This document shows positions 55,719-60,527 of a DNA stretch of 64,000 nt, piece by piece. This stretch comes from an uncultured Chthoniobacter sp. (lineage in GTDB: Bacteria; Verrucomicrobiota; Verrucomicrobiia; Chthoniobacterales; UBA6821): positions 200,920 through 264,919 of the forward strand of contig CAYOAN010000001.1 of NCBI GenBank assembly GCA_964402065.1, given 5' to 3'. Every line of letters begins with the position of its first letter. Position 1 is the first letter of the stretch. The notes under the pieces are model-generated. The model was not told the DNA's origin. It worked only from the letters and a program-made list of their open reading frames with translations, and searched no databases. Position numbers and translations under genes: made by a program.

Positions 55719-55795
55719 AGCGGTTTATCTCAAGTTAATGCTGCAACGATGGTCATTTCGGTACGTGCCTTCTCGATAACCACGTCCAAGAAAAA

Positions 55796-56410
55796 TCAAA
55801 AGTAATCTTTTTTTATTTCAGTGTTAGCAGTGCCATTCTCCCGCATTTCCCATTTTCTTTTTTCCTTTGTAGTCAATTGATCAAGGTCCTTTTTTGAAGG
55901 GAACTTAAAGCTGATTAGTTTTGAAGAGCTCGTATCCCAATCTACATCAAAGATGCACATTTTTTGCTCTTTGAACGGACTACCTTTAAAAGGATAAACT
56001 CCATAAATCAACCTGGCATTTTTTTTAAAAAAATGAACACCTACAACAAAGTAATAAGATGGTTCCTGTATGGGAGGATCACAATCGTAAGCCATCCAAT
56101 GATTGTCTTGGTAATGAACAATGGTGGCCATTGACCCTCCTGATAAATGAGAAACGATAAACAATGATTTTGAATCAGGTGTCCATTTAATATTTTGTAT
56201 GGAAAGAACAAGAGATTTTGAAAAGTCATTTTTAGAGGTTAAGCAATTATGAATTGTTAAAACTGTTTCTCTATCCCCAATAACCAACCTCGCAATATAT
56301 TTTTTGTTTGGTGATGGATATTCTTCATGACGTTCATATGCAACAGCCTCTTGCCCATGTATTAGACAGGTTAAAAATAATGAAAATAAAAAATTGCGAA
56401 AGAAGTTCAT
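55796..56410 (-). CDS. Cassette partner protein A: 204-aa signal-peptide protein of unknown family (candidate immunity/inhibitor)
   Basis: MNFFRNFLFSLFLTCLIHGQEA signal-like N-terminus. Its ATG lies 2 nt after the stop of the upstream gene. SPNKKYIA / WTPDSKSLFIV are beta-propeller-blade-like strings. The paralogue is at 58041-58655. Confidence 0.8.
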   Translation of the reverse strand: MNFFRNFLFSLFLTCLIHGQEAVAYERHEEYPSPNKKYIARLVIGDRETVLTIHNCLTSKNDFSKSLVLSIQNIKWTPDSKSLFIVSHLSGGSMATIVHYQDNHWMAYDCDPPIQEPSYYFVVGVHFFKKNARLIYGVYPFKGSPFKEQKMCIFDVDWDTSSSKLISFKFPSKKDLDQLTTKEKRKWEMRENGTANTEIKKDYF

Positions 56411-56412
56411 AT

Positions 56413-57174
56413 TTAGGATCCAGATGGATAGTAAGTAACTGTAGCATAAATGTCTCTATCATGATTAAATTGGTCAGAAGGATCTGTTGGAACTGGCCCT
56501 AATCCACCACTTCGCTCTTTAATGCCTAATCCGAGATCCTGAGCAGCTTTGATAGAAATTTCACCAACGCTATCTTTTTCAGGACCAAAGTCTCCTACAA
56601 TTGATGAGATAGATTTTATATATTGAGTTGAGTCAATGATGATAGGCCTACCACCTATCATACGCCAAGCGTATGTATAAAAATATACAGTTACATCTGC
56701 TCTGTCTCCCTTTTTGACACCTTGATTAATTAACCATATAGGAGCAACAACATAGGAATCAGTATCAGCATTGAGAGCTTTGTTATTTCTATGAAATGAT
56801 GTGTCCCCCTTATGATCGTAATCTCCATGAGAAGGTCCCGTTCCATCATCATCAAGTTTAATTTGGCCGTTATATGTTAATGGCCCTCTTACCATCATGA
56901 GAGGTAATTCTTCTTTAAATTCAGAAGCATTCTCGTTACTTGACTGATTTTCATAATCAGTTTCAATATTTTTATCGACACTAGTATTTTGATATTCTGC
57001 AGGTGTCTCGCTTTCCTCATTGGTTACTTCATTGCTAGTAGAGTAACAACCAATGCTTGAATAACTGCTAGCTGAAGAGTCAGAGTTGTACTCCGGAATA
57101 CTACTATAGGCAATAAGTTGATTTGGAAATAAAGTAGTCCATAGACAAAAAAGAAGGAGGAAAAATGGTTTCAT
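56413..57174 (-). CDS. Cassette protein A: 253-aa secreted protein with a GH75-chitosanase / double-psi-beta-barrel-like C-terminal domain (candidate glycan-hydrolase effector)
   Basis: Signal peptide MKPFFLLLFCLWTTLFPNQLIA, then an acidic S/N/E-rich linker. Motif order: LDDDGTG, GDTSF, LNADTDSYVVAP, GDRADVTV, IVGDFGP..VGEISIKAAQDLG. Confidence 0.8.
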   Translation of the reverse strand: MKPFFLLLFCLWTTLFPNQLIAYSSIPEYNSDSSASSYSSIGCYSTSNEVTNEESETPAEYQNTSVDKNIETDYENQSSNENASEFKEELPLMMVRGPLTYNGQIKLDDDGTGPSHGDYDHKGDTSFHRNNKALNADTDSYVVAPIWLINQGVKKGDRADVTVYFYTYAWRMIGGRPIIIDSTQYIKSISSIVGDFGPEKDSVGEISIKAAQDLGLGIKERSGGLGPVPTDPSDQFNHDRDIYATVTYYPSGS

Positions 57175-57193
57175 GGTTTTAGATTAGGGTCCT

Positions 57194-57222
57194 TCTAAAA
57201 CTGCGTGCTGGTATATTGTCAA
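57194..57222 (-). promoter_or_regulatory. Sigma70-type promoter of cassette A
   Basis: Minus strand: TTGACA (57217-57222), 17-nt spacer, TTTAGA (57194-57199), about 20 nt upstream of ATG 57174. Preceded by TTTAAAC. Confidence 0.55.
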
Positions 57223-57302
57223 GTTTAAATATCGTTATTTCCATGGATGATCAGCTTTCTATTGTTGGTGAGAAGAGCTAACTTGGATTGTGCTTCTGCG
57301 TA

Positions 57303-57437
57303 TCACACAATAACGTGTCGCAGGATTCGCTCTGGATTAAAAGGAGATCCGCTTCCTGGGAGTCTGATAAGTTTATCCTTGATCATATTTTGCTCAAGTA
57401 GCTCACTCAGAATATGTGCTCGTTCCAACTCCGTGAA
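57303..57437 (-). pseudogene. 3'-terminal fragment of an unidentified gene, truncated by the family-1 copy at 57438
   Basis: Minus-strand frame reads ..FTELERAHILSELLEQNMIKDKLIRLPGSGSPFNPERILRHVIV* with no start codon. The frame begins exactly at the repeat boundary. Confidence 0.4.
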
Positions 57438-57515
57438 TAGAGCATGTTAAAAAATTCTATAACCGCGTATTGCGGCGTCACTCCAGTGCTCGAAGTCCCC
57501 AGTATGAGATATAAT
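57438..57515 (+). repeat. Family-1 element, truncated (left half only)
   Basis: TAGAGCATGTTAAAAAATTCTATAACCGCGTATTGCGGCGTCACTCCAGTGCTCGAAGTCCCCAGTATGAGATATA, after which homology is lost. Confidence 0.8.
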
Positions 57516-57548
57516 ACCCATTTAGGGGAGTGGGGTATAAGAAGATAA

Positions 57549-57917
57549 ATGTTAAATCTTTTGATTTCTTGAAAATTTAAAACCAAATTGGGATTGGTCG
57601 TTTATACAAGTTTCAGCTTTCAATTCTCTAAATAAAGATCAAGTAAGACCCCTACCAATTTATAAAAAGAATGGGATCCACCTCTGAGGCCAACTCGAGA
57701 TTTTCTCTTTTGAAAATCCTCCGAAGCGCTCTTCGCAGCCTGAAGCATGTGGATTGCGGCATTTAGCATTTGCTGTTAATGATCTCCAGGCCGCTGTTCA
57801 ATATTTGGTCGAGAGAGACATTGTCTGTGAACCAATTCGTATTGATGAATTGACGAGTAAACGATTTGTTTTTTCAACACTCCTGATGAGTTGCCATTGG
57901 AGCGTTATGAAAAATAG
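57549..57917 (+). pseudogene. Decayed VOC/glyoxalase-family (YaeR-like) pseudogene
   Basis: 57694-57917 reads LEIFSFENPPKRSSQPEACGLRHLAFAVNDLQAAVQYLVERDIVCEPIRIDELTSKRFVFF-NTPDELPLERYEK* only if 1 nt is restored in the T6 run at 57869-57874. There is an in-frame TGA at 57685-57687. The N-terminal half is eroded or shortened. Confidence 0.75.
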
Positions 57918-58040
57918 ACAAGATCAAGTACAAGGTGGAGAGTATAAGAATTTTTTAACTCTTCCAAAAATTTTTCGACAGATTCAATAAATTGTACCTA
58001 TCACCTTCTTCACTAGGAAAATAACCACGTCCGCGAAGAA

Positions 58041-58655
58041 TCAAAAGTAATCTTTTTTTATTTCAGTGTTAGCAGTGCCATTCTCCCACATTTCCCATTT
58101 TCTTTTTTCCTTTGTAGTCAATTGATCAAGGTCCTTTTTTGAAGGGAGCTTAAAGCTGATTAGTTTTGGAGAGCCGGTATTCCAGTCTACATCAAAAATG
58201 CATATTTTTTGTTCTTTGAACGGACTACCTTTGGAAGGATAAACTCCATAAACTAGCCTAGCAAATTTTTTGAAGAAGTGAGCTCCAACAACAAAGTAAT
58301 AGCATGGACCCTTTACAGGAGGATCACAATTGTAAGCCATCCAATGATTGTCTTGGTAATGAACAATGGTGGCCATCGATCCTCCTGATAAATGCTCAAC
58401 GATAAATAGTGATTTTGAATCAGGCGTCCATTGAATATTTTCTACACGGGAAATAAGAGCTTGTGAAAAATCATCTTTAGAGGTTAAGCAATTATGAATT
58501 GTTAAAACTGTTTCTCTATCCCCAATAACCAACCTCGCAATATATTTTTTGTTTGGTGATGGATATTCTTCATGACGTTCATATGCAACAGCCTCTTGCC
58601 CATGTATTAGACAGGTTAAAAATAATGAAAATAAAAAATTGCGAAAGAAGTTCAT
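58041..58655 (-). CDS. Cassette partner protein B: 204-aa signal-peptide protein (candidate immunity/inhibitor), paralogue of 55796-56410
   Basis: The first 60 aa are identical to copy A. The central region is diverged (DDFSQALISRVENIQW vs NDFSKSLVLSIQNIKW; PPVKGPCYY vs PPIQEPSYY). Same 2-nt coupling to the upstream gene. Confidence 0.8.
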   Translation of the reverse strand: MNFFRNFLFSLFLTCLIHGQEAVAYERHEEYPSPNKKYIARLVIGDRETVLTIHNCLTSKDDFSQALISRVENIQWTPDSKSLFIVEHLSGGSMATIVHYQDNHWMAYNCDPPVKGPCYYFVVGAHFFKKFARLVYGVYPSKGSPFKEQKICIFDVDWNTGSPKLISFKLPSKKDLDQLTTKEKRKWEMWENGTANTEIKKDYF

Positions 58656-58657
58656 AT

Positions 58658-59422
58658 TTAGGATCCAGATGGATAGTAAGTAACTGTAGCATAAATGTCT
58701 CTGTTTTGATTGACTTGATCATGAGGATCTGTTGGAACTGGTCCTAGTCCATTAGAGCGTTCCCTGATACCCAGTCCCAAATCCCTAGCTGCCTTGATAG
58801 ATATTTCACCGACGTCATCTTGCACAGGCCCAACATCTCCTACTATTGATGATATTGATTTTGTATAACAATTACAGGGGTAGGTTACTAAGTTATTATT
58901 GGCATCTAAGCCACTATTATATTCATAAAAATATACGGTTACATCGGCTCTATCTCCCCCTCTAACACCTTGACTGGATAACCATCCAGGAGCGACAACA
59001 TAGGAATCAGTATCAGCATTGAGAGCTTTGTTATTTCGATGAAATGCTGTATCGTTGTTGTGCTTTTTATCATTATGAGATGGTCCCGTTCCATCATCAT
59101 CAAGTTTAATTTGGCCGTTATATGTTAATGGCCCTCTTACCATCATGAGAGGTAATTCTTCTTTAAATTCAGAAGCATTCTCGTTACTTGACTGATTTTC
59201 ATAATCAGTTTCAATATTTTTATCGACACTAGTATTTTGATATTCTGCAGGTGTCTCGCTTTCCTCATTGGTTACTTCATTGCTAGTAGAGTAACAACCA
59301 ATGCTTGAATAACTGCTAGCTGAAGAGTCAGAGTTGTACTCCGGAATACCAGTATAGGCAATAAGTTGATTTGGAAATAAAGTAGTCCATAGACAAAAAA
59401 GAAAGAGGAAAAATGGTTTCAT
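58658..59422 (-). CDS. Cassette protein B: 254-aa secreted GH75/DPBB-like protein, paralogue of 56413-57174
   Basis: The N-terminal roughly 115 aa are nearly identical to copy A. The catalytic-domain core is diverged, but DDDGTG, LNADTDSYVVAP, GDRADVTV and IVGDVGP..VGEISIKAARDLG are retained. Confidence 0.8.
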   Translation of the reverse strand: MKPFFLFLFCLWTTLFPNQLIAYTGIPEYNSDSSASSYSSIGCYSTSNEVTNEESETPAEYQNTSVDKNIETDYENQSSNENASEFKEELPLMMVRGPLTYNGQIKLDDDGTGPSHNDKKHNNDTAFHRNNKALNADTDSYVVAPGWLSSQGVRGGDRADVTVYFYEYNSGLDANNNLVTYPCNCYTKSISSIVGDVGPVQDDVGEISIKAARDLGLGIRERSNGLGPVPTDPHDQVNQNRDIYATVTYYPSGS

Positions 59423-59441
59423 GGTTTTAGATTAGGGACCT

Positions 59442-59470
59442 TATAAAACTGCGTGCTGGTATATTGTCAA
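59442..59470 (-). promoter_or_regulatory. Sigma70-type promoter of cassette B
   Basis: Minus strand: TTGACA (59465-59470), 17-nt spacer, TTTATA (59442-59447). Conserved with cassette A. Confidence 0.55.
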
Positions 59471-59547
59471 GTTTAAATAGCATCGTAGTTATTGTAATTT
59501 TTGAACTATTATTACTTAGAAATTACATTAAGTTGATTTCATCTTAT

Positions 59548-59687: not shown

Positions 59688-60527
59688 CTAAGCGCCTAAA
59701 TCAATAGAGTGATTTTTTAATGCAGGTAGCCATTCTTGAGCCCAAGCAATAACGGTGTCGATTCCTCTTTCTAGCTCAATAGTTGGTTGCCATGAAAGAT
59801 CATGATGATACTGCGTAGATTCTAACAGCTCTTCTTTGTTTTGATGCTGGTGATCACCAATAAGGGTTACGACATCTTCAAAACTTACGTTCAGGCGATT
59901 GCAAATTAAAGACACAAGGTCTCGAACTGAAATGAGGTGATTGTTAGAAAAATGATAAATCTCTCCAGGGACTCCCTCGTAAACTACCCTGAAGATGCCG
60001 GCAGTGATGTCATTGATATGAATAAAGGCTTGCTTGGTGTGGCCACCATCATGAAGGAGAAATTTTTTTTCTGATAAAATAGAGAGAATGATTTTAGGAA
60101 TGAGCTCATGAACTTGCTGACCGGGGCCGTAAACATGACTCATTGGAGCTATGACAACAGAAGAAGTTTTGGTAGTTGTGTTCCGTTGATAGCAATTCTC
60201 CTTCAGTGAGGAAACAGAGACATACTTCAGAGGCTGATTTTTTAATTGATCATGAAAGTCGAGCTGAACATCACCCATGCAATGAATAATATAATCTGGA
60301 TTATAATCATTGATCATCGAGATGGCATTATCAGGATGAGCACCCAAACTGAGTTGCTTTAGGGTAAGGCGGTGAGCGCTTCCTACTTTCCAATGATAAG
60401 GTGTAAACGGAATACTTTTTTTGGGGACGTAGCTTATCCCTAGTACAGTGAGCCCTTGAGAGAGTGCATGGTGAACAAAATGACTTCCCGAAAAAGAATG
60501 ACTTCCAATAATAACGATTTTTTCCAT
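59688..60527 (-). CDS. Divergent NAD-dependent epimerase/dehydratase-family protein (catalytic motif apparently degenerate)
   Basis: 279 aa. The N-terminal Rossmann-like IVIIGSHSFSGSHF and HVYGPGQ are conserved. The region where S..YxxxK is expected is shortened (..ENCYQRNTTTKTS..), with no clear YxxxK. Confidence 0.75.
   Translation of the reverse strand: MEKIVIIGSHSFSGSHFVHHALSQGLTVLGISYVPKKSIPFTPYHWKVGSAHRLTLKQLSLGAHPDNAISMINDYNPDYIIHCMGDVQLDFHDQLKNQPLKYVSVSSLKENCYQRNTTTKTSSVVIAPMSHVYGPGQQVHELIPKIILSILSEKKFLLHDGGHTKQAFIHINDITAGIFRVVYEGVPGEIYHFSNNHLISVRDLVSLICNRLNVSFEDVVTLIGDHQHQNKEELLESTQYHHDLSWQPTIELERGIDTVIAWAQEWLPALKNHSIDLGA

Follow-up and report, generated by a model that had tools for sequence, protein, structure and literature searches.

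The window, by which we mean the whole 64,000-nucleotide stretch of DNA that was analysed, contains two tandem repeat units of about 1.46 kb on its reverse strand (Table 1). Each unit consists of an enzyme gene, a gene encoding a 204-amino-acid partner protein and a 59-nt leader, and in both cassettes the partner reading frame begins 3 bp past the stop codon of the enzyme. The cassette organisation that had been proposed for this locus is therefore real. A third paralogue, P0015, is present in the genome from which the window comes and lies between gyrA and secA.

Table 1 Features of the two cassettes, their surroundings and related loci. Positions are those of the window unless a locus is named; residue numbers refer to copy A.
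Feature	Position	Strand	Description and basis
Two-cassette segment, whole	55776..59481	(-)	GC 0.366 vs 0.419 for the window
Repeat units	55776-57233 (A); 58021-59481 (B)	(-)	about 1.46 kb each
Enzyme gene, copy A	56413..57174	(-)	253 aa; signal peptide, acidic linker and GH75-like DPBB domain (ORF, AF2 model, Foldseek)
Partner gene, copy A	55796..56410	(-)	204 aa, signal peptide; candidate periplasmic immunity protein, partial beta-propeller-like fold
Enzyme gene, copy B	58658..59422	(-)	254 aa; 83% identity with copy A
Partner gene, copy B	58041..58655	(-)	204 aa; 88% identity with partner copy A
59-nt leader upstream of the enzyme, common to both copies	57175..57233 (A); 59423-59481 (B)	(-)	has a TTGACA hexamer
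Predicted Sec signal peptide, residues 1-22	57109..57174	(-)	MKPFFLLLFCLWTTLFPNQLIA; by eye from the sequence; conserved in homologues
Acidic S/N/E/T-rich linker, residues 23-90	56905..57108	(-)	composition; starts with tandem YSSIPEY, YSSIGCY
Tandem motif YS[SN]I[PG]xY, residues 23-29 and 38-44	57087-57108; 57042-57063		same residues in copy B
GH75-like catalytic domain, residues 91-253	56416..56904	(-)	163 aa; AF2 model, Foldseek, conservation, profile alignment
D108-D-D110-G111	56842..56853	(-)	equivalent to V-Csn D34-A-D36-G37 (alignment to 7TVL); roles from PMC9485262
D195...E205	56560..56592	(-)	GDFGPEKDSVGE; equivalent to the V-Csn catalytic pair D148, E157; alignment includes the D148N row
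Long two-stranded beta-hairpin insertion, residues 163-186	56617..56688	(-)	subfamily-specific; strands in AF2 model
78-aa ORF between the cassettes	57754-57990	(+)	no Pfam match
279-aa epimerase-like ORF beside copy B	59688-60527	(-)	PF01370, mainly in the C-terminal part
Second-family partner loci	L001 6001-7386; L005 4909-5583; L007 6183-6866		P0015 and relatives, paired with this family
Enzyme gene with two in-frame stops	L005 4200-4906 (same contig as L016); L017 3040-3738		homologous gene in two samples

The genes next to the segment encode RmlD, an FkbM methyltransferase, a GT2 protein and a YfhO-like protein (surface polysaccharide), as well as sufCB, and the two cassettes form a low-GC edge of this surface-polysaccharide gene cluster. 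The epimerase-like reading frame beside copy B, which PF01370 matches mainly in its C-terminal part, may be truncated or degenerate, and together with the 78-aa reading frame between the cassettes, for which Pfam gave no match, it may be a remnant of genes broken by cassette insertion. Promoter and terminator scans gave counts at or below the shuffled expectation and thus no enrichment, including for the TTGACA leader, which is a candidate promoter only. Homologous cassettes in other genomes (L004 and L001) lie in unrelated genomic surroundings; together with the low GC content of the segment, this suggests that the cassettes are horizontally mobile.

The sequence-only reading had described a signal peptide, an acidic linker and a series of ordered motifs in both copies of the enzyme, and all of these are present as claimed. 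All signal peptides discussed here, in the enzyme, the partner and their relatives, were called by eye from the sequence. The 68-residue linker consists to 68% of S, N, E, T, D and Q, with 15 acidic and 2 basic residues. The motifs of copy A are LDDDGTG (residues 107-113), DTSFH (124-128), LNADTDSYVVAP (134-145), GDRADVTVYFY (156-166) and IVGDFGPEKDSVGEISIKAAQDLGLG (192-217), and the paralogue retains every one of them. The distance of 10 residues between the Asp and the Glu of the last motif, D195 and E205, had been given correctly, and the spacer read as GP-x5-VGE is in fact GP-x4-VGE. Conservation of the motifs is far above chance across 130 diverse homologous domains.

The mature N-terminus carries the tandem motif YS[SN]I[PG]xY, which is kept in standalone verrucomicrobial homologues even where the remaining acidic linker has diverged and is absent from all other reading frames of the fetched loci. 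This tandem may be a sorting or receptor-binding signal, possibly bearing on access to a rival's wall.

GH75 enzymes carry out the endo-hydrolysis of chitosan with inversion. The only member that turned up among solved structures in our searches is V-Csn, a GH75 chitosanase of a soil virus (PDB 7TVL-7TVP; PMC9485262). A search with hmmscan against PF07335, named as a check of the GH75 assignment, found no match for either window enzyme even at E<=10, so that both also stay below the gathering score of this profile, and the four cassette proteins gave nothing relevant in Pfam and NCBIfam at the same threshold. The PDB sequence searches, by phmmer and with a narrow profile of the close family, returned no match, and neither did PHROGs for enzyme or partner. 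As a consequence of the missing PF07335 match, the link from the window proteins to GH75 has to be made through intermediates or through structure.

Both routes lead to V-Csn. The AlphaFold2 model of residues 88-253, based on an alignment with 15 homologues, has a mean pLDDT of 81 and a pTM of 0.76, and its top five matches in the PDB according to Foldseek are the five V-Csn entries 7TVL-7TVP (E 4.6e-5 to 1.9e-4, probability 1.0), with modest TM-scores (TMq 0.40-0.50). The next matches are the DPBB proteins kiwellin and expansin. By the model and by the first place of V-Csn in Foldseek, the domain has the DPBB Domain-1 of GH75.

An exhaustive profile search collected 281 clusters at E<=1e-3, and a broad family profile built from 93 of these matches V-Csn 7TVL over its full length at E 8.2e-21. 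PF07335 is matched individually by 35 of the 93 and by 13 of 29 family members, several of them above the gathering score of 27 bits; these intermediates include P0143 (50.3 bits), P0097 (41.1), P0105 (33.7) and P0071 (32.7). Direct comparisons are less telling: phmmer gives about 7 bits between V-Csn and the window protein, and hhalign of the narrow family against V-Csn gives a moderate probability of 78.8% over 52 columns. The proposed GH75-chitosanase-like DPBB domain with an Asp/Glu pair is thus borne out by the Foldseek ranking, the family profile and the alignment of the acids, which support placing the enzyme as a distant, compact member of the GH75 superfamily, homologous to V-Csn via intermediates.

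The same reading had also pointed to a resemblance to RlpA- and 3D-type DPBB enzymes, which holds for the fold and fails at the profile level. Neither PF03330 nor PF06725 (RlpA-like/3D) matched the window proteins in Pfam at E<=10, and neither was found among the 93 and 29 relatives scanned; because no RlpA or 3D-domain profile matches, this likeness is one of fold only. The best viral structural match, BFVD A0A6J7X6A9 (551 aa, from an uncultured Caudovirales phage; E 2.3e-7, TMq 0.60, 27% identity), is labelled 'Molybdopterin dinucleotide-binding domain', which is probably a cross-annotation between DPBB families, and it likely carries this glycanase domain.

GH75 enzymes have just six universally conserved positions, D34, D36, D148 and E157 in V-Csn numbering and two glycines (PMC9485262). 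The four acids align with D108, D110, D195 and E205 of the window enzyme, and the residues mutated in the V-Csn entries 7TVN and 7TVO are D148 and E157. Among the 130 domains, D108 is present in 123 and D110 in all. The putative catalytic Asp and Glu, on whose conservation across homologues the earlier assignment had been made to depend, are conserved as well: E205 is invariant (130/130), and position 195 is Asp in 125 domains and Glu in the other 5. The glycines are likewise in place, with G111 in 130/130 and G194, G197 and G204 each in at least 119/130, and D118, T125 and S207 each occur in 123 or more of the 130 domains.

The family departs from V-Csn in the remainder of the cleft. V-Csn carries a Domain-2 of 72 residues (37-108), inserted in the barrel, which provides the opposite wall of the cleft as well as the -2, -3 and +1 subsites (PMC9485262). 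The 130 domains lack a Domain-2 of this kind: the equivalent segment has a median length of 22 residues (range 18-41) compared to 69 in V-Csn, and it has a conserved D118 and T125 of its own. D50 of V-Csn, which belongs to the +1 subsite, is replaced in the family, and the spacing of the catalytic Asp and Glu is one residue shorter in V-Csn. The window enzymes also carry the long hairpin of residues 163-186, which occurs in at most 13 of the 130 homologues and is the stretch most divergent between copies A and B (nucleotide identity 0.50 over codons 161-180). Given the short Domain-2, the loss of D50 and the added hairpin, the window subfamily is a compact branch of the GH75 superfamily rather than a typical member.

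We next consider the partner gene. The AlphaFold2 model of the 204-aa protein (pLDDT 85) is all-beta with TolB-propeller-like blades, as indicated by TolB-like matches in Foldseek. A word-indexed search for partner homologues returned 9 proteins, and the link to Rhs proteins described below came from the inspection of neighbouring genes. In most loci the enzyme and partner genes are separated by -4 to +6 bp, and the pair recurs across unrelated genomic neighbourhoods.

In the relatives, the domain is nearly always found at the extreme C-terminus. At least 10 Rhs-repeat proteins end in it, and there it directly follows the PxxxxDPxGL motif and the TIGR03696 Rhs core, that is, it occupies the toxin-payload position of polymorphic toxins. 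The homologues are thus found as payloads on a delivery scaffold; the window proteins themselves are not Rhs. We examined the five Rhs relatives with retrievable DNA (L022-L026), and in all five loci the reading frame directly downstream of the Rhs gene encodes a homologue of the 204-aa partner. A partner HMM built from verrucomicrobial partners alone and searched against 1,752 reading frames at E<=10 matched these five (E 3e-18, 1.5e-14, 3e-14, 3e-10 and 2.4e-8) and every cassette partner, with zero further matches. All complete cassette loci contain a partner-family reading frame, so that the conserved downstream gene typical of toxin-immunity modules is present here.

P0015 and its relatives pair with a second partner family of 224-241 aa, which has a signal peptide and a 'VLWKVDGKW' motif and no detectable similarity to the 204-aa family. 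In two samples (L005 and L017), a homologous enzyme gene is interrupted by two in-frame stops, and beside it the 224-aa signal-peptide partner is intact. This arrangement looks like a decayed toxin whose immunity gene has been retained.

Enzyme, partners and full-length Rhs relatives all carry signal peptides, which indicates that enzyme and partner meet in the periplasm. Together, these observations show that the gene pair is probably built like a toxin gene with its matching immunity gene. The reading of the gene as a glycan-cutting enzyme stands in so far as the protein is GH75-like, and it had overlooked this toxin-immunity appearance of the pair, which shifts the likely target from chitosan towards the bacterial cell wall.

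Delivery appears to differ from that of type VI effectors. The window enzymes have Sec signal peptides, their neighbours in the window are polysaccharide-synthesis and Suf genes, and a PAAR domain occurs in one family member only, so that we do not assign the window enzymes to the T6SS effectors. The full-length Rhs relatives P0124, P0046 and P0060 (L022, L024) start with an N-terminal Sec signal peptide, not with PAAR or other T6SS adaptor domains, which suggests that these Rhs toxins depend on Sec for their export.

Other relatives carry the domain in fusion with PG_binding_1 (7 cases), PG_binding_3, Phage_lysozyme2, Peptidase_M15_4, SH3_3 and T4SS pilin-like modules. PG_binding_1 is combined with Glyco_hydro_75 in P0097, P0105, P0143 and P0158, three of which score above the Pfam threshold. 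These peptidoglycan-binding fusions belong to the subgroup close to V-Csn and not to the subgroup of the window. The fusions with PG_binding_1, Phage_lysozyme2, Peptidase_M15_4, SH3_3 and T4SS_pilin modules suggest that many bacterial and phage 'GH75 chitosanases' may act on peptidoglycan.

The comparison of copies A and B shows a mosaic pattern. The enzyme genes have a dS of 0.014 over codons 1-116 and of 0.83 over codons 117-241 (omega 0.33), the stretch from enzyme codon 241 to partner codon 58 is identical, and the partner genes have a dS of 0.50 over codons 59-165 (omega 0.24) and of 0 over codons 166-204. Conserved ends around a variable core, as known from polymorphic toxins, are therefore seen in both genes, with a dS of about 0-0.014 in the flanks compared to 0.83 and 0.50 in the enzyme and partner cores. 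No positive selection was detected, since omega (dN/dS) is below 1 in every block. Judged from these substitution patterns, the two copies are most readily described as old alleles with recently homogenised ends, and the mosaic of old cores and homogenised ends is a sign of recombination or gene conversion, with purifying selection acting on the genes. Hairpin types A and B each occur singly in other metagenomes, and in L011 and L012 a B-type enzyme stands beside a partner segment that is A-like; hairpin type and partner type did not co-vary cleanly in the loci compared.

Based on these results, we favour, with moderate confidence, the model that the enzyme of each cassette is a glycan-cleaving toxin exported by Sec and that its partner is the cognate immunity protein in the periplasm. 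From the observed homology, fold, residue conservation, gene linkage and domain contexts we infer catalysis, substrate, toxicity and neutralisation as follows. The exported enzyme would cut beta-1,4 bonds of a cell-wall glycan, most probably the peptidoglycan backbone. By analogy to V-Csn, the enzyme would be inactivated by loss of D195 or E205, and D110 and D195 would hold the sugar at subsite -2. The 204-aa partner, which is likewise exported to the periplasm, would inhibit the enzyme by binding it and thereby shield the producer and its kin. In the tandem copies, recombination would have joined old allelic cores to recently homogenised ends. An exported immunity protein implies that the target is present in the producer's own envelope, and peptidoglycan is the most economical reading; on the target itself our judgement is evenly poised between peptidoglycan and the alternative of chitosan or another GlcN-containing glycan. 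Against the toxin model counts the fact that the outer membrane of Gram-negative bacteria cannot be crossed by a freely secreted enzyme alone. The missing direct match of the window proteins to PF07335 and V-Csn, the moderate hhalign result, the modest TM-scores, the position of the peptidoglycan-binding fusions outside the subgroup of the window, the imperfect co-variation of hairpin and partner types and the omega values below 1 weigh in the same direction.

The pair could have other functions, and these have to be weighed against the same evidence. The enzyme might be an ordinary secreted GH75 chitosanase used for feeding on fungal, algal or arthropod chitosan, with a downstream gene that is unrelated or encodes an accessory periplasmic protein. 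The signal peptide fits this idea, as does the conservation of the two acids, D36 and D148 in V-Csn, with which that enzyme binds the free GlcN amine, and V-Csn, the closest solved structure, does hydrolyse chitosan (PMC9485262). We nevertheless regard it as unlikely, given that feeding needs no tightly linked exported partner whereas the partner family lies directly downstream in 5/5 Rhs-fused relatives, that the domain serves as an Rhs C-terminal payload, that the chitosan cleft has lost V-Csn D50 and had its Domain-2 cut from 69 to about 22 residues, and that relatives are fused to peptidoglycan-binding modules.

This association with peptidoglycan in relatives, the DPBB fold and the export of both proteins by signal peptides would equally suit a housekeeping enzyme of wall remodelling, that is, a DPBB lytic transglycosylase of the RlpA or MltA kind with the partner as its regulator or inhibitor and no use against other cells. 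Such a role is very unlikely in view of the patchy, island-like distribution at low GC and differing insertion sites, the tandem duplication of the cassette with mosaic alleles, the pseudogenised enzyme gene in some genomes and the deployment of relatives on Rhs and PAAR; nor do the RlpA or 3D profiles match, even at E<=10. Finally, kiwellin and expansin among the fold matches, and the resemblance of V-Csn Domain-1 to such proteins (PMC9485262), raise the idea of a non-catalytic DPBB binder of glycan or protein, comparable to expansin, cerato-platanin, kiwellin or a protease inhibitor. This is hardly credible, as the GH75 acid tetrad and its flanking glycines are invariant or nearly so in 130 domains and the best matches of both fold and profile are to an enzyme, V-Csn, and not to the binders. 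The toxin-immunity model therefore remains our preferred reading of the cassettes.

Peptidoglycan hydrolases that act in the periplasm and are matched by periplasmic immunity proteins are familiar from the T6SS pairs Tge/Tsi and Tae/Tai. VgrG3 has a GH46-type chitosanase-like fold, so that there is a precedent for turning a 'chitosanase' fold against peptidoglycan. A GH46-like fold is documented on a VgrG (PMC3235180). The proposed logic of the window pair, a wall-degrading enzyme with an exported inhibitor, would be the same as in these T6SS effector pairs, whereas the fold is GH75/DPBB and not a lysozyme-like GH46 or amidase fold, the immunity family is new, and no linked T6SS genes or PAAR/VgrG were found among the scanned neighbours of the cassettes.

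The Rhs and other polymorphic toxins (Zhang et al. 2012, PMC3482391) offer a parallel for the relatives, in which the domain fills the C-terminal slot after PxxxxDPxGL and is followed by a small conserved gene; the occurrence of the domain also in standalone cassettes, the conserved ends with variable cores and the recombination are further points in common. In contrast, the window genes are not Rhs and carry a Sec signal peptide and an acidic linker. With GH75 and V-Csn the family shares, through homology, the DPBB core, the four acids, the GDxGP...GExS motif and the flanking glycines, but its context is that of an Rhs payload with an immunity-like partner and not of carbon acquisition. GH45 endoglucanases, MltA (3D domain), RlpA, expansins and kiwellin have the barrel topology and an acid at the E205/E157 position in common with the enzyme (PMC9485262); they differ by the absence of the GH75-specific tetrad of DxDG and GDxGP...GE, and none matches the enzyme at the profile level.

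In the searchable literature we found no paper that ties GH75 or DPBB domains to Rhs, T6SS, effectors or immunity, the nearest being the GH46-type fold on VgrG. Neither chitosanase nor DPBB, barwin or RlpA occurs in the polymorphic-toxin survey (PMC3482391), peptidoglycan is never mentioned in the V-Csn paper (PMC9485262), and Pfam and NCBIfam cover neither the window proteins nor the Rhs C-terminal domain nor the partner. Toxin-immunity pairs and GH75 are each already known, and what appears to be undescribed is the fold in this role, its compact form and the family of immunity proteins.

If the toxin-immunity model is true, the known interbacterial cell-wall toxins would be extended by an enzyme fold new among them (GH75/DPBB) and by a new family of immunity proteins. 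Gene pairs of freshwater Verrucomicrobia and Rhs C-terminal domains that so far lack annotation would acquire a function. With about 160 residues and a defined candidate inhibitor, the compact domain would also lend itself to work on the substrate choice of DPBB glycanases. A broader and more tentative suggestion is that the compact branch of GH75, with its short Domain-2, comprises widespread and so far unrecognised peptidoglycan-cleaving antibacterial toxins and lysins, accompanied by a beta-propeller-like periplasmic immunity family and with Sec, Rhs, PAAR, phage tails or T4SS-associated proteins as their means of delivery. Many bacterial and phage genes now annotated as 'GH75 chitosanases', some viral 'auxiliary metabolic genes' among them, would then encode cell-wall weapons or lysis enzymes rather than chitosan feeders. 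The fusion of PF07335 domains to peptidoglycan-binding modules, together with the silence of the V-Csn paper on peptidoglycan, already makes it worthwhile to revisit whether the 'GH75 chitosanases' of bacteria and phages act on this substrate.
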